This document shows, one piece after another, positions 8,241 through 56,094 of a stretch of DNA of 64,000 nucleotides. Position 1 is the first letter of the stretch, and each line of letters starts with the position of its first letter. The translations under genes were made by a program, and so were the position numbers. Origin of the DNA: Eledone cirrhosa (Eukaryota). Under the pieces are notes generated by a model. It was not told the DNA's origin. It worked only from the letters and a program-made list of their open reading frames with translations, and ran no database searches. Location: the NCBI GenBank assembly GCA_964016885.1, contig OZ024745.1, forward strand, positions 1,860,001 through 1,924,000, in the 5' to 3' direction.

Positions 8241-9062
8241 TAATCTTGATACTTGATAGAAGTTCAGCTGTTTGTGACCAATTGTGGCCGCTTCTGGCTC
8301 CTAAGTCAGGTAATTATGATGTCTTATCACCGTGGCTATCTCGTACTCTCTCTAAATTCTCTGCTCAAATCATTAGCCTATTTCTCTCTTTCATACAAAA
8401 CACCAACACATGCACCATGTAGCTCACAACACTTCATCAATTTATCCTGGTTCCCTTATTGTTAAGGAATTTTCCGATGATTTGACCGAGGTTTCTAATA
8501 CAAAATCCGATGATATAAATAACTGTATTCTAGACAAACAAATACATACTTTTTCTCTACTCACTTTTGTAAGACTTTTCTTTAAAACATAAATAACGGG
8601 CATCAGACCACGTGGATCATACATACACAAATACAACTCTTTGCATTACATTTCCTGTATAACTCCTGGTCATATCTCTCTCCCTTTTCTATCTGCCCCC
8701 CCCCCCCCTCTCTGGTCCAAATATCGAAATGAAGGAGCAATTATTGTGTCTAGAAATAGAAATATGGACGATGTGGAATATGAATAATAAACAGTAGGAA
8801 TGATAACTAAGTATTTAGTAGGAAATGGGAACAAGAGAATGAAAACCATACTATCAGTCTGAGAGTGAGAGAGAGGAGACAGAGAGAGAGAAAGGGGGGG
8901 GGGGGCAAGAAAATAAAAATAAAATAAAGAAAACAATCAAAGAAGAATAAAATAAGTCTAAAAATCAACTTTGAGAAGAGCAAAGAAAAAAGAAAAAAGA
9001 AAAAAAGAGAGAGAAAATCGACCCCAGTACTACATTAGGAGAATGGATGAAAGCAAACGACG

Positions 9063-11452
9063 CTACCATTATATCTGACGTTCTAACCACTCTACCATTC
9101 TATCTGACGTTCTAACCACTCTACCATTCTATCTGACGTTCTAACAACTCTACCATTCTATTTGACGTTCTAACCACTCTACCATTCTATCAGACGTTCT
9201 AACCACTCTACCATTCTATTTGACGTTCTAACCACTCTACCATTCTATCAGACGTTCTAACCACTCTACCATTCTATCTGACGTTCTAACCACTCTACCA
9301 TTCTATCTGACGTTCTAACAACTCTACCATTCTATTTGACGTTCTAACCACTCTACCATTCTATCAGACGTTCTAACCACTCTACTAGTCTATCCTACGT
9401 TCTAACCACTCTACCATTCTATCTGACGTTCTAACCACTCTACCATTCTATCTGATGTTCTAACCACTCTACCATTCTATCTGACGTTCTAACAACTCTA
9501 CCATTCTATCTGACGTTCTAACAACTCTACCATTCTATCTGACGTTCTAACAACTCTACCATTCTATTTGACGTTCTAACCACTCTACCATTCTATCAGA
9601 CGTTCTAACCACTCTACCATTCTATCTGACGTTCTAACCACTCTACCATTCTATTTGACGTTCTAACAACTCTACCATTCTATCTGACGTTCTAACAACT
9701 CTACCATTCTATTTGACGTTCTAACCACTCTACCATTCTATCAGACGTTCTAACCACTCTACTAGTCTATCCTACGTTCTAACCACTCTACCATTCTATC
9801 TGACGTTCTAACCACTCTACCATTCTATCCGACGTTCTAACCACTCTACCATTCTATCTGACGTTCTAACAACTCTACCATTCTATCTGACGTTCTAACA
9901 ACTCTACCATTCTATCTGACGTTCTAACCACTCTACCATTCTATTTGACGTTCTAACCACTCTACCATTCTATCAGACGTTCTAACCACTCTACCATTCT
10001 ATCTGACGTTCTAACCACTCTACCATTCTATTTGACGTTCTAACAACTCTACCATTCTATCTGACGTTCTAACCACTCTACCATTATATCTGACGTTCTA
10101 ACCACTCTACCATTCTATCTGACGTTCTAACAACTCTACCATTCTATTTGACGTTCTAACCACTCTACCATTCTATCAGACGTTCTAACCACTCTACCAT
10201 TCTATCAGACGTTCTAACCACTCTACCATTCTATTCGACTTTCTAACAACTCTACCATTCTATCTGACGTTCTAACCACTCTACCATTCTATCTGACGTT
10301 CTAACCACTCTACCATTCTATCTGACGTTCTAACAACTCTACCATTCTATTTGACGTTCTAACCACTCTACCATTCTATCAGACGTTCTAACCACTCTAC
10401 CATTCTATTTGACGTTCTAACCACTCTACCATTCTATCAGACGTTCTAACCACTCTACCATTCTATCTGACGTTGTAACCACTCTACCATTCTATCTGAC
10501 GTTCTAACCACTCTACCATTCTATCTGACGTTCTAACAACTCTACCATTCTATTTGACGTTCTAACCACTCTACCATTCTATCAGACGTTCTAACCACTC
10601 TACTAGTCTATCCTACGTTCTAACCACTCTACTATTCTATCTGACGTTCTAACCACTCTACCATTCTATCTGACGTTCTAACCACTCTACCATTCTATCA
10701 GACGTTCTAACCACTCTACCATTCTATCTGACGTTCTAACCACTCTACCATTCTATTTGACGTTCTAACAACTCTACCATTCTATTTGACGTTCTAACCA
10801 CTCTACCATTCTATCTGACGTTCTAACAACTCTACCATTCTATCTGATGTTCTAACCACTCTGCCATTCTATCTGACGTTCTAACCACTCTACCATTCTA
10901 TCTGACGTTCTAACCACTCTACCATTCTATCTGACGTTCTAACCACTCTACCATTCTCTCAGACGTTCTAACCACTCTACAATTCTATATGACGTTCTAA
11001 CCACTCTACCATTCTATCAGACGTTCTAACCACTCTGCCATTCTCTCAGACGTTCTAACAACTCTACCATTCTATCTGACGTTCTAACCACTCTACCATT
11101 CTATCTGACGTTCCTAACAACTCTACCATTCTATCTGACGTTCTAACGACTCTACCATTCTATCTGACGTTCTAACAACTCTACCATTCTATCAGACGTC
11201 CTAACCACTCTACTATTCTATCTGACGTTCTAACAACTCTACCATTCTATCTGACGTTCTAACAACTCTACAATTCTATCAGACGTTCTAACCACTCTAC
11301 CATTCTATCTGACGTTCTAACCACTCTACCATTCTATCTGACGTTCTAACCACTCTACCATTCTATCTGACGTTCTAACAACTCTACAATTCTATCAGAC
11401 GTTCTAACCACTCTACCATTCTATCTGACGTTCTAACCACTCTACCATTCTA
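9063..11452. repeat. 29-bp minisatellite, about 82 copies, apparently derived from a SINE head
   Basis: Unit CTACCATTCTATCTGACGTTCTAACCACT; preceded by a SINE remnant ATCGACCCCAGTACTA at about 9017. Confidence 0.95.
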
Positions 11453-11729
11453 CCCTACTGTGCCACTAAATAATAAAACACGACCAACAAGGCAGTCGGT
11501 ATAATCACAAGCAGACACATAACCACACTCAACACTAACCAACTACAGTCAATACTAAACCTAATAACACAACTAACATTACACATACTCTATTAAACAC
11601 ACACGATAAACACAAAAGTAACAGAGATGTTACACTCCCAAGAAGACAATGGTGCAGACACACCTGAAGGAAATGGAGGGCACCATGTGGTTCTATAGAA
11701 ACTCTTGTGAAACTGTGGAAAACATGATA

Positions 11730-42046: not shown

Positions 42047-42189
42047 ATGGTCCACCTGGTTCCTTACCACATTTCCTTCGTTATATATATATATATAACG
42101 AAGGAAATGTGGTAAGGAACCAGGTGGACCATAACGCACCAAAGTACTCAATAGTTGAGGTAGTAGAGTGGGTAATAGGAACCAGTAAG

Positions 42190-42283
42190 ACCCCGACAGC
42201 TGAGCTCAAGCCGTTTCGACGGCTAATTCTGGACTAAATGAAAATTTATCCTGGTATTTAAATAGCCGATCTTCTCAAGGGGT
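42190..42283 (-). ncRNA. Non-canonical (U3-A8) type I hammerhead ribozyme
   Basis: Reverse complement of 46747-46840. Confidence 0.72.
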
Positions 42284-43398: not shown

Positions 43399-45680
43399 TT
43401 ATAGCCCTAGTCTACCCCCCGGGTCATTATGGGGTTTGAGGGCGAGGTAAGTCCTACGCAATCTATGTTTACATGCAGTAACCAGTTCATCTTTCTTGTT
43501 TAGGAGTTGGTCCGTCGAAAACAGCATTTGTAAAGTTTCCTCCGAGCATAAATTGCACGGACGGCGTCCTCCCGTGTAAGAATTGGCTCTGGACAGTAAT
43601 CTCCAAGTGAGATCATAGGTGATGTTGTTGTCCTTGAGGTCCCATATGTGGCCCGAAAGTGTAGTGGCGTGACGCCGGGCCGGGTTTAGGAAGGTATGTC
43701 TATGTTGGTATAGCCGGGTCTTGAAGTCACATGCGGTAAGTCCTATATAGGCTTTGTTGGAGGTATCCGTCCTCACGTTGCACTGGTAGATCACATTACG
43801 GTCTCTGCATCTATTGTCGAGTGGGCAAATAGATCTATCCGGGCAGTTACACCTCCTGGTCGGTTCTCCACTGCTATTTAGGTTATTTCTGCCATCGGGG
43901 TTGAGTTTTTTGTTGTTAGAGGAGACGATGTTTTGTGCGAAGTTTGGTGTAGTGCTGTAAGAGAGTTTGATGGTATTTTTGTTAATTATGTTGTGGTAGC
44001 GGTGTTGTAATGGGAAGTGTTTTTCAATGAGCCTAAAGAATAGTTTCCCGATGGGAGTTGTCACCTCTGCGTTGTGGGGAGGATTGAACCATGTTACATT
44101 GCGTGAGCGGCGGTGTCTCCTGCTGGTTCCGCTAATGGGAGCTGGACAGTAGGATATTTCCTCCCGGAAACCACTCCGCTTGAGGGCCTGGTTGTAATAA
44201 GGCGCATGTTCATCGAATATCCGCTCATTAGCTGACAAACGGGATATGCGGAGGGAGATGTTTTTGACCAGGTTGTTTGTGATGTTCCTAGGATGGTTTG
44301 ATCGGCGGTGGATGTAGTGCAGATTGTCATTAGGTTTCCTGTATGGGTAGTACAGGTCGTTTTCGAGGTCGAGGGTCACGTCCAGGAAGTTTACTCTGGT
44401 CAGGGACGTTTGTAGGGTTATTTTAAATCCCCAGTCGCGGAAGAATCTGATTAATTGTTTCCGGACCCGATCTGTACTACTGGGGTTGTACCCTTTAAGG
44501 GTAAGGAGCCCATCATCACGGTACAATCCACCACCGAATGCAGGAAACATATCAGTGAGTTTGGCTATTAGGAATAATCCTATAAGATCTGTGACCTCCG
44601 CCGAATCCGTGGCGCCCATGCTGACGTCGAAGGGTGAGTCGGGAGCTCTTTTTATCCATTTAGAGTCGTCAAAGAGTAAGACTGTCTTCCTGGCGTGGAG
44701 GATGATTTTTCTTTCCTGGTCGGTGATGGGCACAAGTGTTTCGGCGAAGTCCAAGGCGGCAGTAAGTAGCGGTAAGGTGATTGAAGCATAGTAGCTCTCT
44801 ATGTCGAACTGTATATGTCAGGTCACCAGTTGGTGCTACTGGTAACATGTATCCCAGTACAACCTGTCCCATGGTCGGGTCGTTGGCGACTAAACTGGCA
44901 ACCCCACCAAGGTTTCTTGGTGAGGAGGGTGACTTTGGACATCCTGCAGGACTAAAAACAAAACCTGTCAAAGGGCAAAGGAGCTCTTAAGAGTCAATGG
45001 CCATCCAAAATCACCGGGAGAGATGACCCCTTAGCCTTTGTCAAGGCAGAATTCTAGGAGAAGGAAAACTCTGATATAACACCTGCAACCCTGATGGTAT
45101 CCAATGATGTTGACTTGTTCTTCTTTTTGGTAAATATCATCTTGGTTAAGAGAGTGGGACTGGCTTTGTGCAGTGCCTTTGCTCACTATAAAAGCTTCAC
45201 GGCACAGGCATTGCTTTATATCTGGAGATCTCTCTGCACTTGTCGTCACATGGTACCATGGGCCCAGCACTATGTGTCAGTAATTGTCACAAGTGTAGTG
45301 TTTGTACCAGAGTTTTCAAGTCGCTGGCTGGACTAAAAAGTCACACTCGTTCAGCGCATCGGTAGGGGTTCTCCTACATGGATATAAAGTAGTGGCCGTA
45401 CTCGAAAACGAGTTGGCAGCCACCATGTCGAACTGTATGAATTTAGTTTCTCGTTTATCCTCCATATTGCTGAACCAGGAGATTACTTCCTGGGTGTTGA
45501 TCCATAGGCTAAGTCGGGTGTGTTGCTTGACTTTTGGTATCACGCGGTCTAGGATTTTTTTGCTGATTCTCCCTATGTCGGACTTCGTTGGGTTAATAAG
45601 CCTGATAGAGGGTTTACGGTCAAAATCGGATTTATGGTCCTTCAGTGTGAAGTATAGTGTCCGTGGGTCTAGAGGTTCCG
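43399..45680 (-). pseudogene. PLE reverse transcriptase / GIY-YIG endonuclease, interrupted at 44815-45424
   Basis: LKDHK..RLINPTKSDIG, FIQFDI|ESYYASI, MGATDSAE, GLYRDDGL, NFLDVTLDL, CNCPDRSICPLDNRC, VIYQC..AYIGLT, CNLCSEE, CKH. Confidence 0.93.
44815..45424 (+). mobile_element. 610-bp non-autonomous bipartite RTE-like element
   Basis: 14-bp TSD ATGTCGAACTGTAT (44801-44814, 45425-45438); RTE 5'-UTR-like TCTAGGAGAAGGAAAACTCTGA; zinc-finger relic CSVCTRVFKSLAGLKSHTRSAH; 3' stem-loop CTCGAAAACGAG. Confidence 0.82.
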
Positions 45681-46746
45681 TGCTTGCCAAGGGAGACGTA
45701 AGATCTTCTTTGTATTCTTTTATCGCTTCCTTTATTTCCTTCCTTCCCCCCTCTCTCCTTAGTCCTTCTACCCCAGCTCTTCTTCTTTGTCAGCGTCTTT
45801 TCTCGCCCACCCGAGGCTGCCCTTTGGCCCCTTGTAGCCTTTGTACCCCCACCCCCTCCCCTAGTCTAGGATAGATTTGGCGGACTCCGCCCTTTATAGC
45901 AGTTGGTTTAGACCCCGGATACTTGTCCCCTTTTTCCGACCGCTCCCACTATCCTCTGTGCCCTCTATATTTCTTAGTGGCACTTATGCCTTATTTTTTC
46001 GTTTCAGTATTTCTTTCTTCGCTTTTCTTTTGGGCGGGGTGGATTCTGAATTTATTCTTCCGTATTCTACCTTTACTTCGTACGAACTTTCATTGTTTTA
46101 GATCTTTTAGAGTTAGCATTAGTATATATTTTTCTCGGGACTCAGAATTATTATCTCGTATTAGTTCACTTTGCTGCACTGGGTGGTTGCTGGAATTGTG
46201 CCCGGGATGGAAACCTTTATTGTTTATTTCGTGGTAGTCTCTTTAGTATTTTGGCCCCTTTTGTTGACCCGTCACCGTATCATTTACGTACTTATACCTC
46301 TTAAAAGGGTCCTCGCCTATTTCGTCCCACCTAGTTCTTTTACTTATTTCGTTATTTCTTTATTTCTTTCTTTACTTCTTTCTTTCTTTATTTATTTATT
46401 TATTCTAGCCTAACAATAGCCTGAGACCTAGGTCGTAGAATTTAATTTACTTTACTTTTTTCTTTACACTTATTTGCTTTTCTTCACTCTCAGTATTTTT
46501 TCTTTCCTATATATTTCTACCCCCCATTGTTCTACCTACCGTTCCGAATTCCTCCCCCTCCCCCTCCCCTGTATCTTCTTTGACCTCATGCCCAGCTGTA
46601 GCTGGCACTACAAACGCTTGATTGGGGCTACTCCACCCCCTCCCCTCTTTCTCCTACTGGCAGGTTTAGCCACCATCTCCCCTACTAATTTGCAACCACA
46701 GAATTACTACTGATTTTTGAAAATCACTTTGACCATATATGCAATT

Positions 46747-46840
46747 ACCCCTTGAGAAGATCGGCTATTTAAATACCAGGATAAATTTTCATTTAGTCCA
46801 GAATTAGCCGTCGAAACGGCTTGAGCTCAGCTGTCGGGGT
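46747..46840 (+). ncRNA. Non-canonical (U3-A8) type I hammerhead ribozyme with TATA box in the stem II loop
   Basis: Stem I ACCCC/GGGGT; core TTGAGAA (46752-58); stem II GA(T)CGGCTA/TAGCCGTC; GAAA (46813-16); stem III CGGCT/AGCTG; GTC with predicted cleavage after 46835. Confidence 0.75.
46766..46798 (+). promoter_or_regulatory. Putative pLTR TATA box and initiator
   Basis: TATTTAAATA at 46766-75 and Inr-like TTAGTC at 46793-98, about 28 nt apart. Confidence 0.5.
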
Positions 46841-46850
46841 CTTACTGGTT

Positions 46851-46908
<58 letters not shown>

Positions 46909-47560: not shown

Positions 47561-48134
<574 letters not shown>

Positions 48135-48321
48135 ATACACAGAACAAAAGCGCTACCTAAGATTCCAAGACCCGATATTGACCATATCTCCAGATTCAAT
48201 GAGACAACAAGATTCTGACCTTAACTTCAGGCGCTTAGATATATATTATATACACGTATATTATACACTCATATATGTGTATTTCTCTATCTCTCTTTCT
48301 ATATATATATACATATATATA

Positions 48322-49215
48322 CGAGGTGTGTCAGAAAAGTTCCAGGACTGATGTCACAAAAATTTATTTCAAACCCAAACTTCACACTAAGAGTTTTCTC
48401 CTTCAAAGTAATCCCCCTGGAGTCTAATGCACTTTTCCATCCTTTTCTGCCACGCTTGCATGCACTCTTGGAAGGATTCTTCCGGGATCCTCCGCAGTTC
48501 CGTCGTCACGGCCTTTTTGATGTCGTCCACGTCTTCAAAACTGGTCCCCTCCGGGTCGTACTCGAAGATCCATGACTCATCACCGGTGATGACTGTCCCT
48601 AGCCAGTCTGGTTCGGTTTCAAGACGCTCGAGGATGTCCTGGCACACTTGCATGCGTCGACCCTTCTGGTCATCGTTCAGCAGTTTTGGCACCATCTTCG
48701 CGCAGGCTTTCCGCATGTCCAAATCTTCAGTGAGAATCTTCCAGACGCTGTCCCGATTCATGCCCAGCTCATTTGCCATCAGTCGAACAGTCAGCTAACG
48801 ATCGCTACGCACCATCTGCCTGACGCGTTCAACGTTGATCTCAGTCCTGGTTGTTGAGGGCCTTCCGCTCCTGGGGTTATCTTCCACGTCCTCGCGTCCT
48901 TCTTCAAACCTCTTGCACCACTCAAAAACACGTGAGCGTGACATTGTCTCATCTCCATACACTTGCTGCAGCAATCCCAGTGCTTCTGACGGAGTTTTCA
49001 AGTTTGTTCGTTGCTCTGTGCTCATTGCTTGACGACCTGAAACAGAGGACATGTATATAAAATTATGAAGAAAAAAGTTTGATCGCTGCAGAGAGCTAAG
49101 ATTACAGTTACATATTCCAGGGGGATTACTTTGAAGGAGAAAACTCTTAGTGTGAAGTTTGGGTTTGAAATAAATCTTTTGTGACATCAGTCCTGGAACT
49201 TTTTTGACACACCTC

Positions 49216-49216
<1 letters not shown>
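48322..49216 (-). mobile_element. Internally deleted mariner transposon
   Basis: TA target, ~100-bp inverted ends (48322-48421, 49116-49216). Transposase relic has VYGDETMSRSRVFEW, PRSGRPST, MVPKLL and ITGDESWIFEYDPE fused to the C-terminal KCIRLQGDYFE, with a stop at 48795. Confidence 0.93.
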
Positions 49217-49284
<68 letters not shown>

Positions 49285-49890
49285 AACAAAAGATGGTTAA
49301 AAGAGTTCCATGTATTTTATTATGCGCATTTCAAAAACAAATATCATCATGCAATAATATTTGTGTTTTCATCAGATAAAACAGGAAGACATGATATGAA
49401 GGTTAAAAAAACACTTGTGGATAGTGCAGTTTTAAATCAACATATGAAAAGTAGTTTTAGATTGATGTGTGATATTGGGAAAAATATTTTATTTTGAGGG
49501 GGGAGGGGGGGGTGAAAAAGAGGAGGAGATGAGAGTAAAAAGTGGAGAGGGAGGAGTATAATGAGGAAGGATGAGATAGGAGGAGAGATGGGTGATAGAG
49601 AGAGAGAGATAGCTTTTATAACTGAGAAAAATATATTGTTTTACATAGAGAGGTTGAAAACCGTTGGAAGATAATGTATAAATTAAAAGAATTTGAAAAT
49701 TAACGAAGAGAAAAATAATGTAAAGTTAAGGTTTGTATATTGAAGGGTTTAATAATATGTGCGATGAAAAGAAAATGTTAATATGTATTAAGAATAATAT
49801 TTAAGGGTTTAATAAAAACTACTTTTCATATGTTGATTTAAAACTGCACTATCCACAAGTGTTTTTTTAACCTTCATATCATGTCTTCCT

Positions 49891-49959
49891 GTTTTATCTG
49901 ATGAAAACACAAATATTATTGCATGATGATATTTGTTTTTGAAATGCGCATAATAAAAT
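49891..49959 (+). ncRNA. Type I hammerhead in the 5' pLTR of PLE2 (antisense copy at about 49313-49383)
   Basis: GTTTTAT-CTGATGA-long stem II-GAAA-TGCGCA-TA-ATAAAAT; palindromic minimal stem III. Confidence 0.8.
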
Positions 49960-50167
49960 ACATGGAACTCTTTTAACCATCTTTTGTTCTTATATATTAT
50001 GTATACTCCAGTCCTACAAACTGTAGAGTGCTTCTTATCCGATATCTGCATTGCTTTATTGTACTACAATAAAACTCACCTCCTACATTAACTTGCTCCT
50101 TAACGGTTGAGCGCTAACTCTCATATTGGATACCTTTTGATGGTCCTTTACTTTTTTCTTCTACAAC

Positions 50168-52760
50168 ATGGATTATTACAACATAACAAATTCAACTAAA
50201 GATATTCCTATACCTGGTAAATCTGAATTCACCAAACTTCTAATTGAAAAAACTGACTCCTTCGTAAGAAGACTTAGATGGATAGCCTATTTCTATGACC
50301 AGCGCCTAAAAGGGAACTTCTATACCAAGGAACATAACTTCCTCGATCATCTATTTAATTCTAGAAGAAATCCTCCTTCCAACAAAAATCTAGTGCAATT
50401 CGAGGAAGAGTTAACTAAAATTATAAAAATCTTAAATTCAAGAGATACCCTTACAAAGGACAAGAGCACCTTGTAAATCTCAAGAACACAATTTCAAACC
50501 TAAATTCCTCAAAAAATGTTTTAGTACACTCTGACAAAACCAATAATTTATATGGTATTTCCAAGGATAATTATAACAACCTTATCCTAAAGGAACTTAG
50601 GAAAAAATATCGTAAAACCAACCATGATAATTTAGAATACATAAACTTTGAAGCCTCTGAGATTATGTCAAAACTTGGCATTGAAAAAAAGACCGAACCA
50701 TTCCTCCCAAGAACTCCGAGGATAAATCTCAAGGATCACAAAAACAATTTTCGCACTGAACTACCTGTTAGATTAATCTCTCCCTCTAAATCAGATCTGG
50801 GGGTTGTTAGTAAAGCCATCTTGGATAGAATTATCCCACGGGTTCGTTCTAATTGCTCTTCCTTGAACTTAAATTTATGGTTTGGTACTTCTGAAGTGAT
50901 TGGCTGGTTCAACAAATTGAATAATAAAAACAAACTAAAATTTGTTCAATTTGATATTGCCAGCTACTATTCTTCTATTTCGCCTTCACTTCTCTATAAT
51001 GCCCTATCTTTCGCACTTAAATATTCTGACATCACCACAGATGAACTTCACATCATTCTCACCGCACGTAAAACCATCCTAGAGTTCAACAATGAATATT
51101 GGACCAGAGCCGATACCTCTAACAACTTCGACATCACAATGGGAGCATCCGATTCATCCCAATTGACAGATTTAATTGGTATCTTTATTTTGAACTCTTT
51201 GAGTCGGAAAATTCCTCAACTTCGCAGTGGTATTTATCGTGACGATGGACTCTTTACTATCTTAAATTGCAACATAGTTAACCTTAATATTATTAAGAAC
51301 AATATACGTAATCTCTTTAACCAACATAACCTAAAAATTGAATTTGATAACAGCATCAAACTAGCTAATTTCTTGGATGTATCTCTTAATCTTGACACTG
51401 GCCTATATTACCCTTACCATAAAAACAATGAGAACCTAAATTATGTTAATTTTAAATCTAACCATCCTACTAATATCAAGAATGCTATAGTTAGTAATAT
51501 TGGAAAAAGAATATATAACCTATCTTCTAATAAAAACATCTTTGGTGCTGACGCCAATTACTATAATAACGCGCTTTCTAAAGCCGGCTATCCTGATAAA
51601 ATTAAATATAGTAAAGAAACAAATTCTAGAAGAACTTAGTAGAATAATTAATCATGATCATTCCAATAATTTTAATAAAAGACCTAGATACAAAAACATA
51701 ATCTGGTATAATGCTCCTTTCTCCATCTCTATTAATAATAATATTCCTAAATTATTCTTTAGTGCCTTAAATAAATGCTTCCCTCCCTCACATATCTATA
51801 GTAAAATATTTAACAAACACACTATAACAATTTCATATTCTACATCCTCCAACATTTCCAACATTATCTCTAAACAAAGGGCGGTGGATTGGCAGTATCG
51901 GTAGAGGGTCGGACGCCATGCTTTACAGCATAGTTACGTCCCTTTACAATCTGAGTTCAAATCCCGCCGAGGTTGACTTTGCCTTTCATCCTTACGGGGT
52001 CGATAAAATAAAGTACCAGTAATGCACTGGGTAATTGCTGGCCTTGTGCCTAAAGTAGAAACAATTATCTCTAAACACAACAATAAAATACTAAATACTA
52101 AATCTCTTCCTTCCAACACTGAATATCATAATAATAGTAATAGTACTTCCGACGTAATTGTAAACCCTAGGCTAATTTCTGCAAACCCAAATACAACGTC
52201 AAACACAACTTCGCTAAATGTTCTTAATCCCATTCTAAATCAAGAAACTATTATTCCTATCGCAAATAACTTCTCCAATCCAATTCCTTCTATAGATAAC
52301 ACTAGATCACTCGTTAATAATCTCTCTAATTGCAATTGCCCTGTTAAAAATACATGTCCTCTCAACAACCATTGTCTCGATAAAAACTTAATTTACGAAT
52401 GTAAAGTTATAACTGACACCAATTTCTTCACCTATTTTGGCTCCACTTCCACCTCCTTTAAAGCTCGTCTTTATAACCATCATTCGTCTTTTAAATACAA
52501 ACTTAAAAGAACCAACACGGCTCTCTCAGAACTCATATGGTCCTTGAAAGCCAAAAATATTAAATATAGCATCTTTTGGAAGAAGGTTTCTTCTGCGTTT
52601 TTCATACTTGAACAGTTCTCTATCCAAGATTTGCAATCTCTGTCTAAATGAAAAATTTACCATTATTTCTAATTTAGATTCTATAATAAATAGACGCACT
52701 GACTTGTTTTCTATCTGCTTGCATAAATTCCACAAAAAATTCCACAAAGTATACAGCTAA
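50168..52760 (+). pseudogene. PLE RT / GIY-YIG ORF with about 3 frameshifts and a SINE insertion
   Basis: STKDIPIP, RRLRWIAYF, SDKTNNLY, LKDHKNNF, FVQFDIASYYSSI, GIYRDDGL, CNCPVKNTCPLNNHC, LIYEC..TYFGST, CNLCLNEK; TAA at 52758-60. Confidence 0.93.
51877..52063 (+). mobile_element. Full-length tRNA-derived SINE inserted in PLE2
   Basis: 14-bp TSD ATTATCTCTAAACA (51863-76, 52064-77); removal restores NISNIISKHNNKIL; B-box GAGTTCAAATCCC. Confidence 0.93.
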
Positions 52761-53158
52761 TATCCAAAACTTTATCAATTTAGAATCTTTTTCTCAAAGG
52801 CACATATATATATATATACTTCTTTAAAAATATACCCATCTTTCTACCTTATTTCAAAGTTATTTATTATACATTATATAATACTTGTTACTCATTCTAT
52901 ATCACTCATATTTATCACTTCCCTTTCTTCTCTTTTTCTTTTAATGTCTAACCCCTAATCTGTACCTTTTCTCACTGTTGCCTAACATAGAAACAATTAT
53001 TACACAATACAATACATTCTTACTTCATATCACCTTGTAAAAATCCTTCGTAAACATAAACATTTTTTTGACGTTAGATTATTCATCCTCAATTCATTAT
53101 TTTTTTCTCCCTTTCATCTAACTTATTCATGCTCATCTCACAACATATCCTTACTTTA

Positions 53159-53330
53159 ATAATACATATCAACATTTTCTTTCCATCGCACATATTATTA
53201 AACCCTTAAATATTATTCTTAATACATATTAACTTTTTCTTTCCATCGCACATATTATTAAACCCTTAAATATTATTCTTAATACATATTAACATTTTCT
53301 TTTCATCGCACATATTATTAAACCCTTCAA
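53159..53330. repeat. 60-bp unit repeated about three times in the PLE2 3' UTR
   Basis: Sequences at 53161, 53221 and 53281 align almost base for base. Confidence 0.9.
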
Positions 53331-53695
53331 TATACAAACCTTAACTTTACATTATTTTTCTCTTCGTTAATTTTCAAATTCTTTTAATTTATACATTATC
53401 TTCCAACGGTTTTCAACCTCTCTATGTAAAACAATATATTTTTCTCAGTTATAAAAGCTATCTCTCTCTCTCTATCACCCATCTCCCCTCCTATCTCATC
53501 CTTCCTCATTATACTCCTCCCTCTCCACTTTTTACTCTCATCTCCTCCTCTTTTTCATCCTTTCCACCACCCCTCCCCCCTCAAAATAAAATATTTTTCC
53601 CAATATCACACATCAATCTAAAACTACTTTTCATATGTTGATTTAAAACTGCACTATCCACAAGTGTTTTTTTAACCTTCATATCATGTCTTCCT

Positions 53696-53764
53696 GTTTT
53701 ATCTGATGAAAACACAAATATTATTGCATGATGATATTTGTTTTTGAAATGCGCATAATAAAAT
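53696..53764 (+). ncRNA. Type I hammerhead in the 3' pLTR of PLE2
   Basis: Identical to 49891-49959. Confidence 0.8.
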
Positions 53765-54178
53765 ACATGGAACTCTTTTAACCATCTTTTGTTCTTGTAT
53801 ATTATGTATACTCCAGTCCTACAAACTGTAGAGTGCTTCTTATCCGATATCTGCATTGCTTTATTGTACTACAATAAAACTCACCTCCTACATTATATAT
53901 ATATATATACACACTGTAAGACAGTTAAAATAAAGGATGTGACCAAACCATATACGTGTATAAGTATATATGCATATATGTGTGAGTGTATGTTTGTAAA
54001 AGGTAAACAGAAATAACGAAGCAAACGACACAGTACATCAAAGAAATATATTAGTTTAAGGAAAAGAGTCTCAACGTTTCCGACACTAATTCTTCATCAG
54101 AACATAGAGTTAGAAATAGAAGATAAAATAGAAAGTTAAAGATTGAGAAGAGATAGGAACAGGAACAAATTAGAAAAA

Positions 54179-56033: not shown

Positions 56034-56091
<58 letters not shown>

Positions 56092-56094
<3 letters not shown>

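Follow-up and report, generated by a model that had tools for sequence, protein, structure and literature searches.

A Probable Transcription Start Site within the Hammerhead Ribozyme of a Hydra-Clade Penelope-like Element from Eledone cirrhosa

Introduction

How one and the same repeat can start the mRNA of a retroelement and also hold a ribozyme able to cut RNA is the question raised by positions 46,747–46,840 of a 64,000-nucleotide stretch of the Eledone cirrhosa genome (assembly GCA_964016885.1, contig OZ024745.1, positions 1,860,001–1,924,000, forward strand; hereafter the window). A sequence-only reading of the window had placed a hammerhead with an unusual core here, in the pLTR of a Penelope-like element (PLE), and had proposed that its stem II loop holds the promoter. 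In the accessible parts of PMC8557442, PMC11167929 and PMC3846280, the role of the PLE hammerhead, its cutting in cells and the template strand are treated as open questions.

The evidence on start, cut and priming presented below consists of DNA junctions, with the 5′ ends of genomic retrocopies used as a map of 5′ ends; numbering takes the A of the initiator (Inr), A46795, as +1. Samples were taken from the first 19 Mb or from the first listed places of one chromosome. The unselected set comprises loci L067–L136, drawn from the first listed matches of a 22-mer, with 83 distinct arms. This 22-mer, an exact word from the 3′ half of the hammerhead, has 54,367 occurrences across the 3.0-Gb genome and its reversed control has 0, so its abundance exceeds chance.

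Structure of the Element

The main copy in the window lies on the minus strand in the order ORF, 1.1-kb 3′ UTR, hammerhead and tail. Its ORF (43402–45677, minus strand) is 5′-truncated and interrupted, and encodes a reverse transcriptase (RT), a CxCX5C linker and an endonuclease of GIY-YIG type at the C-terminus; the linker and the endonuclease, the latter with CxxC and CxH, are found in ORF 44817–43402. The hammerhead at the 3′ end of this copy (42283–42190, minus strand, the same sense as the ORF) is 100% identical to 46747–46840 and has its Inr A at 42235, and the long tail behind it (42097–42189, minus strand) is the element's own 5′ leader and reaches about +139, the presumed second start of reverse transcription. 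Joined to the truncated main copy in head-to-head orientation is an inverted arm (45678–46852, plus strand) made of the 3′ UTR and a pLTR copy, whose short 3′ end (46841–46852, plus strand) stops at +58, the presumed first start of reverse transcription, and is followed by (TA)n. The window also holds an insertion of a sister subfamily at 56090–56511, with a long minus arm carrying a TTGACAA hammerhead, a palindromic junction and a long-tailed plus arm whose 5′ end lies a few bases past +1, and a twin stub at 60569–60795, in which two head-to-head arms begin at +1 or next to it, one with the short and one with the long end.

It has been reported that PLEs of the Hydra clade combine RWK-like and DKT motifs, a CxCX5C linker and a C-terminal endonuclease (PMC8557442, accessible part). 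The full-length copy L061 has direct pLTRs 3,096 bp apart, RWR and DKT motifs N-terminal to the RT, a tail that is the element's own 5′ leader, and an ATG at +232. The family inserts into (TA)n and carries a hammerhead in its pLTR, as Hydra-clade elements do, and its protein, compared by eye with that of Hydra-1_Obim, is visibly homologous; a Pfam search matched no family for the ORFs. By these features, the element is a Hydra-clade PLE. Two other assignments were rejected: a Naiad PLE requires an endonuclease N-terminal to the RT, and here it is C-terminal, so the hint of the earlier reading towards Naiad hammerheads pointed to the wrong clade; a non-LTR retrozyme consists of non-coding tandem units, and the motif here sits in a protein-coding PLE and in inverted stubs.

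Several further features of the sequence were recorded. An insert of about 610 bp (44815–45424) lies in the RT coding region between 14-bp direct repeats (44801–44814 and 45425–45438), and a relative of it flanks locus L102. In the leader of L061 (L061:4050–4117, about +80 to +146), an upstream ATG, a pyrimidine tract and a YAG end (TTTAG or TCTAG, depending on the subfamily) are present; by analogy with D. virilis Penelope, this part of the leader is possibly a short retained intron spanning the second priming site. Large tandem arrays with periods of 29 nt and 9/12 nt occupy 8940–11500, 20022 onward and 61866–64000.

Layout and Fold of the Hammerhead

The motif at 46747–46840 (plus strand) is a type I hammerhead with a U3-A8 core, a long two-part stem II and a 5-bp stem III: three helices surround the core boxes, helix I is open, and an NUH site is present. 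Stem I is formed by ACCCC (46747–46751) and GGGGT (46836–46840) on the plus strand; the 5′ core box TTGAGAA (46752–46758, plus strand) supplies U3 U4 G5 A6 G7 A8 A9, in which U3 (46752) and A8 (46757) form a Watson–Crick pair at positions 3 and 8; stem II pairs 46759–46767 with 46805–46812; the C11.1-GAAA core box lies at 46812–46816 (plus strand; +18 to +22), with GAAA itself at 46813–46816; and stem III pairs 46817–46821 with 46829–46833 and encloses the palindrome TGAGCTCA. The triplet GUC occupies 46833–46835, with C17 at 46835, and cleavage is predicted between C17 and the following G (46835–46836, plus strand; +41/+42), where a class of retrocopies has its 5′ end at G46836. On this layout, the motif is a hammerhead in the pLTR of a Hydra-clade PLE, and the earlier description of a complete type I hammerhead with a TTGAGAA core and a GUC site, lacking CTGANGA, agrees with what is present. 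The diverged TTGACAA subfamily that had been placed near 56105–56201 was likewise found, as a sister copy on the minus strand at 56100–56201.

The hammerhead is the minimum-energy fold of the sequence (−23.2 kcal/mol); its stability shows no excess over shuffled sequences (z = +0.30), and a hammerhead family is absent among the 150 listed of 240 Rfam matches with E ≤ 1. The segment 46768–46804 had been taken for a stem II loop of about 37 nt. It is predicted to consist of an internal loop and a distal hairpin (G46779–C46799, pair probability 0.95), and the Inr would therefore lie inside a helix strand and not in an open loop. It was also observed that stem I can be extended in most copies through a bulge in the 3′ strand to a distal GGAA/TTCC helix (46741–46752 with 46836–46852); in the window copy the distal strand reads GCAA, and the +58 priming site lies at the end of this helix.

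Core Variation and Subfamilies

A pattern for the 5′ half of the motif matches the genome 7,376 times, compared with 54,367 occurrences of the 3′-half word. Among the first 100 of these 5′-half matches listed, tallied by eye, 76 carry U3-A8, 24 carry C3·A8 and none carries G8, and position 7 can be any base. The C3·A8 copies form an amplified subfamily (for instance at L023, L076, L214 and L338), with G at position 7 in 20 of the 24; in these 24 of 100 copies positions 3 and 8 do not form a Watson–Crick pair, and a C3·A8 core is expected to be impaired. The C3U/G8A exchange had been described as conserved while position 7 varies. The drift at position 7 and the retention of A8 bear this out, but the exchange is not strictly kept, since 24 of 100 copies have C at position 3. 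In an alignment of 14 copies at 89% identity, no pair with two-sided covariation was found; over 27 pairs, 93.9% of the cells are paired and the stems are nearly invariant.

The U3-A8 exchange in pLTR hammerheads is already known: it was published in 2014, with about 1,300 hits in Cercyon PLEs of Schistosoma (PMC4209133), and has been reported in other natural hammerheads (PMC3088659), both according to the accessible text of these papers. The closest protein relatives of the present element show 41–56% identity. Among eight more distant relatives from metagenomes (34–48% identity), five have canonical hammerheads with a short stem II, and on this comparison the long stem II looks like a derived trait. 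At least four more hammerhead families with canonical cores were seen in the flanks of L006, L029, L045, L059, L066, L096, L155, L305 and L317; the hammerheads at L096, L029 and L305 have very long stem II regions.

Probable Transcription Start within Stem II

Short stubs that start midway through the motif make up the majority of genomic copies. In the unselected set, 64 of the 83 arms have their 5′ end between −6 and +13 of A46795, 4 end between −13 and −60, and 15 run for at least 150 nt. In a leader-anchored set, 52 of 99 arms start between −4 and +7, 8 further upstream and 39 further downstream, a few of the last being under-extended diverged copies. The cliff of 5′ ends coincides with the A of the initiator-like TTAGTC (46793–46798, plus strand; TCAGTC or TCAGTA in some copies) in all four subfamilies, and an Inr with A at +1 in one of these three forms is present in 90 of 95 full copies. 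The Inr of Drosophila, TCA+1GTY (PMC5580651), is close to that of the family, and A46795 is accordingly the presumed capped nucleotide.

A further sign is the base that precedes +1. Genome-wide it is G in 5,781 cases and A in 959, where the template has T or C, and in 19 of 30 loci by script (17 of 30 by eye) the extra G is not attributable to the partner arm. It has been reported that an extra G at the 5′ junctions of full-length L1 copies is ascribed to the cap (PMC11702581). The raw G:A ratio of 6:1 overstates the cap signal, because G is common at other break points as well, largely from the partner arm: in 85 arms broken elsewhere, the preceding base is G in 33, T in 31, C in 16 and A in 5. 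Read with this correction, the extra G at +1 is likely the footprint of a copied cap. The start near 46795 at TTAGTC within stem II, as originally suggested, is thus backed by the retrocopy cliff and by the extra G, and a transcription start inside the ribozyme is regarded, on these genomic junctions, as very probable.

Other promoter elements are less regular. A TATA-like box at −29 (46766–46773, plus strand) overlaps the 5′ strand of stem II, with its first TA within the stem, and is loosely conserved: TATTTAAATA begins at −29 in only two subfamilies; TATTTAAA stands at −29 in subfamilies A and D, and in B and C the word at −31 is TATTTATT or TAYTCAWN, in each case overlapping the constrained stem. 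Judged by these words, the box is good in A and D and weak in B and C. The box formerly placed in the stem II loop lies partly in the stem, and is a loosely kept candidate for a TATA box. The CGAAA at +18 to +22 partially matches the MTE word CGANC, and CGG at +27 to +29 is absent; the resemblance may be a coincidence, and it was set aside as evidence. In contigs of four runs whose kind is unrecorded, the summed depth of X1 rises about 30-fold over 46790–46810; contigs cannot show starts, X1 may come from the same sample as the window, and this rise is not used as support.

Footprint at the Predicted Cut Site

When three mismatches were demanded before a given base, starts were counted at 1,567 raw matches for +42 (G46836), compared with 68 for +39, 111 for +41 and 140 for +46 (12 by chance). 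Part of the +42 class is artefactual, with 40 of 100 listed rows (by eye) and 11 of 30 (by script) being indels in intact copies; after their removal about 940 starts remain, 7–14 times the number at neighbouring positions. Fifteen insertions free of this artefact were sorted by junction: in 7 of them +42 is the end of both arms, 2 are joined directly to (TA)n, and the remaining 6 are of other kinds. Where two arms both end at +42, 1–5 untemplated bases often stand between them. A possible microhomology into the G run is seen in 3 of 30 +42 junctions, all among these 6. The insertions in which both arms end at +42 suggest cleavage in vivo. The claimed cut after C46835 in RNA containing the whole ribozyme therefore finds backing in the +42 retrocopy class, as far as this can be read from DNA, and hammerhead cleavage in vivo is considered likely, with good confidence.

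Subfamily B shares the G run and accounts for 21 of the 83 arms, yet only about 100 of about 900 +42 ends (161 raw) come from it. The C3·A8 subfamily provides about 11 of about 60 true +42 rows (by eye), compared with 12 of the 83 arms overall, roughly in proportion to its size. Cleavage in cis by a core whose positions 3 and 8 are paired does not account for this share, which is the chief objection to the ribozyme reading.

Twin Stubs, Presumed Priming and Long Copies

In 59 of 61 twin stubs with head-to-head arms, one arm ends at +58 and the other at about +139; 2 are unclear, and no stub is short–short or long–long; the sample is partly tail-anchored, and 28 events of the unanchored set show the same pattern. 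In vitro work on a PLE of the anole has described a pair of neighbouring internal starts for the RT, cuts in both strands of the DNA and a template RNA that was uncut (PMC11167929, accessible part). Both arms of an insertion were probably copied from one RNA molecule, since the +42 RNA is rare and yet both arms often end at +42.

All long copies examined pass the cut site and reach +58 or about +139. Such copies likely derive from uncut RNA, because their sequence continues beyond the cut site, and a cut in the downstream pLTR would take the priming sites away. About 21 long–long head-to-head pairs were found by eye among the first 100 listed long arms. Mixed insertions, in which a long arm accompanies a cap-stopped arm, occur at L334, at L356 and in the window at 56090–56511, and are not explained by one priming place on one RNA. 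The proposal that the downstream pLTR is a processing site is not borne out by the long copies, and the site looks more like a terminator or brake; judged from these copies, cutting seems to be a sideline or a check on the element and not the step that makes the template for transposition.

Proposed Mechanism

The reading preferred here, which we hold with reasonable confidence, is that of a Hydra-clade pLTR whose transcription starts at A46795 in stem II, so that the capped RNA lacks the 5′ half of the ribozyme and the ribozyme exists in read-through RNA only. Pol II would start within stem II, and the mRNA would carry the 3′ half of the ribozyme alone; such a capped RNA could not cut off its own cap, since the 5′ half is missing. 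The whole ribozyme would form solely in RNA that reads through a pLTR. The RT-endonuclease would nick (TA)n on both strands and prime twice on one sense RNA, at the fixed internal sites +58 and about +139. With the enzyme on the capped leader, both cDNAs would run off at the cap and yield the abundant stubs; with the enzyme on the downstream pLTR of uncut read-through RNA, long copies would arise; and where read-through RNA has cleaved itself after C46835, the 3′ fragment alone would be copied and give the +42 stubs. On read-through RNA, the ribozyme would end the transcript and part the body from the priming sites, and the internal start would shield the mRNA from cleavage. The chances that this protection is the selected reason for the internal start seem evenly balanced.

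Alternative Explanations

The rival that weighs most accepts the start in stem II and takes the ribozyme as inactive or irrelevant in cells: +42 ends would reflect a stall of the RT at stem III or end-joining into GGGG, and the region would be kept mainly as a core promoter and an RT-binding site. The +42 ends of C3·A8 copies, the absence of covariation in the 14 copies and the 3 of 30 junctions that fit microhomology speak for it, as does the anole PLE, whose insertion in vitro was unaffected by hammerhead mutants and for which the accessible text reports no RNA-seq reads ending at the cut site (PMC11167929). However, the peak lies at +42 and not at +41 or +39; in 7 of 15 insertions untemplated linkers separate two arms that both stop at +42; few such ends (about 100 of about 900) come from subfamily B, although its stem III is stronger and its G run is no different; and position 7 drifts, whereas A8 and the rest of the core are retained. 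On balance, an inactive ribozyme is unlikely. A cliff produced where reverse transcription of a full-length RNA stalls or folds back at the distal hairpin of stem II would remove the start itself, and A46795 does lie inside this predicted hairpin, with a few percent of the arms reaching 2–5 nt beyond +1; but the cliff is in mid-strand and not at the base of the helix, it falls on the Inr A in all four subfamilies together with an untemplated G, and a second family in the window behaves likewise at a TCA outside its own ribozyme, which leaves this explanation hardly credible.

Two further schemes would give the cut another meaning. In a retrovirus-like strand transfer through a terminal repeat R (+1 to +41), cDNA reaching the cap would jump to the 3′ end of cleaved RNA and continue through the 3′ UTR and ORF, making cleavage productive; the geometry fits exactly, mixed long and cap-stopped insertions exist (L334, L356), and the leader sequence beyond the cut site in long copies would be explained. 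The arms of an insertion are, however, usually alike, the long–long pairs (about 21 among the first 100 listed long arms) are unexpected from independent rare jumps, and in 0 of 30 loci with the extra G does the sequence run in register into an upstream pLTR, so that such a transfer appears improbable. In a split ribozyme, the capped leader would be paired, in trans or end to end, with the 5′ half in the downstream pLTR and be cut at +42; this would decap it or prepare a circle, so that 5′ cleavage would be conditional. The hammerhead is indeed rebuilt when 46740–46794 is co-folded with +1 to +60 (predicted gain, −6.9 kcal/mol), and a U3-A8 half acting in trans could explain the +42 ends of the C3·A8 subfamily; against this, the leader alone is predicted to fold otherwise, the downstream 5′ half already adjoins its own 3′ half and nothing here points to circles, and a split ribozyme is rated more doubtful still than strand transfer. 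The read-through ribozyme with an internal start thus remains the preferred reading.

Significance

The clade, the pLTR hammerhead and U3-A8 were known already; a search of the open-access literature found no start site inside a hammerhead and no strong-stop copies in PLEs, and in this literature the apparent bisection of the ribozyme by a start site and the putative genomic footprints of cap, cut and double priming are unreported. A broader formulation, to which we lean only slightly, is that a Pol II core promoter is built into a monomer-competent hammerhead, a single stretch of 94 bases serving as promoter in DNA and as ribozyme in read-through RNA alone, and that the tens of thousands of stubs are a fossil 5′ RACE recording the cap, the in vivo cut and the double priming, which would settle template polarity and show cutting in the germ line. 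The family yields predictions exact to the base, namely a cap at 46795, a cut at 46835/46836 and priming at +58 and about +139, with thousands of natural insertions behind them, and suggests a simple route by which an element can keep an active ribozyme in a repeat that also starts its mRNA. Junction counting could map the starts and cuts of other PLE families from genomes alone.

Comparison with Known Systems

A second Hydra-like PLE family occupies 47688–53860 of the window. Its hammerhead cores (48000, 49898 and 53703 on the plus strand; 47845 and 49375 on the minus strand) have the canonical CTGATGA; stem II is long and AU-rich, and stem III is a short palindrome of the kind that depends on dimers. 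Pieces of the family's ORF lie at 50419–51639 and 52007–52651. Inside it, a fragment at 48795–49316 (minus strand) presumably resembles the N-terminus of a mariner-type transposase. Stubs of the second family begin at about 53630–53633, at a TCA that resembles an Inr and precedes the core by 70 nt, outside the ribozyme, in contrast to the start inside stem II of the family studied here.

The element resembles the Hydra-clade EN+ PLEs of PMC8557442 in its RWR/RWK and DKT motifs, CxCX5C linker, C-terminal endonuclease, (TA)n targets, pLTR hammerhead and inverted truncated arm. The Hydra hammerheads in File S2 of that paper, in its accessible part, all combine a CUGAnGA core with a 3–10-nt loop 2, whereas the window family has U3-A8 or C3·A8, a 37-nt extension of stem II and a stable stem III; its 3′-half word is absent from the accessible part of the supplement. 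With the motifs of PMC4209133 and PMC3088659 it shares U3-A8 in place of C3-G8, the position in PLE pLTRs and the fact of being missed by CUGANGA descriptors. The PLE motifs of PMC4209133 are, however, minimal, dimer-dependent and of low activity, and the available text of both papers reports no start site inside the motif and no footprint of in vivo cleavage.

Similarly to Poseidon PAc of Anolis (PMC11167929, accessible part), the family has two internal RT starts 3′ of the hammerhead that explain the tail, cutting and extension on both strands, and an uncut template; for PAc the start site is described there as unmapped and no reads were found at the cut site, whereas in the window family genomic stubs mark both start and cut. 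D. virilis Penelope (PMC2377424) and Adineta Pen2a (PMC3846280), as far as their accessible text goes, also have a Pol II core promoter in the pLTR. For Pen2a, a TATA box plus an Inr has been proposed, and the Adineta study leaves template polarity open (PMC3846280, same part). In D. virilis Penelope, transcription begins 46 bp ahead of an intron of 75 bp that ends directly at helix I; lying upstream of the hammerhead, this start leaves the ribozyme whole in the transcript (PMC2377424, same part). The plant retrozyme NbRZ1 likewise unites a Pol II promoter and a hammerhead in one repeat, but in the opposite arrangement to the window family: its start is upstream, and the active hammerhead cuts off the 5′ end and blocks translation (PMC12029980, accessible part).
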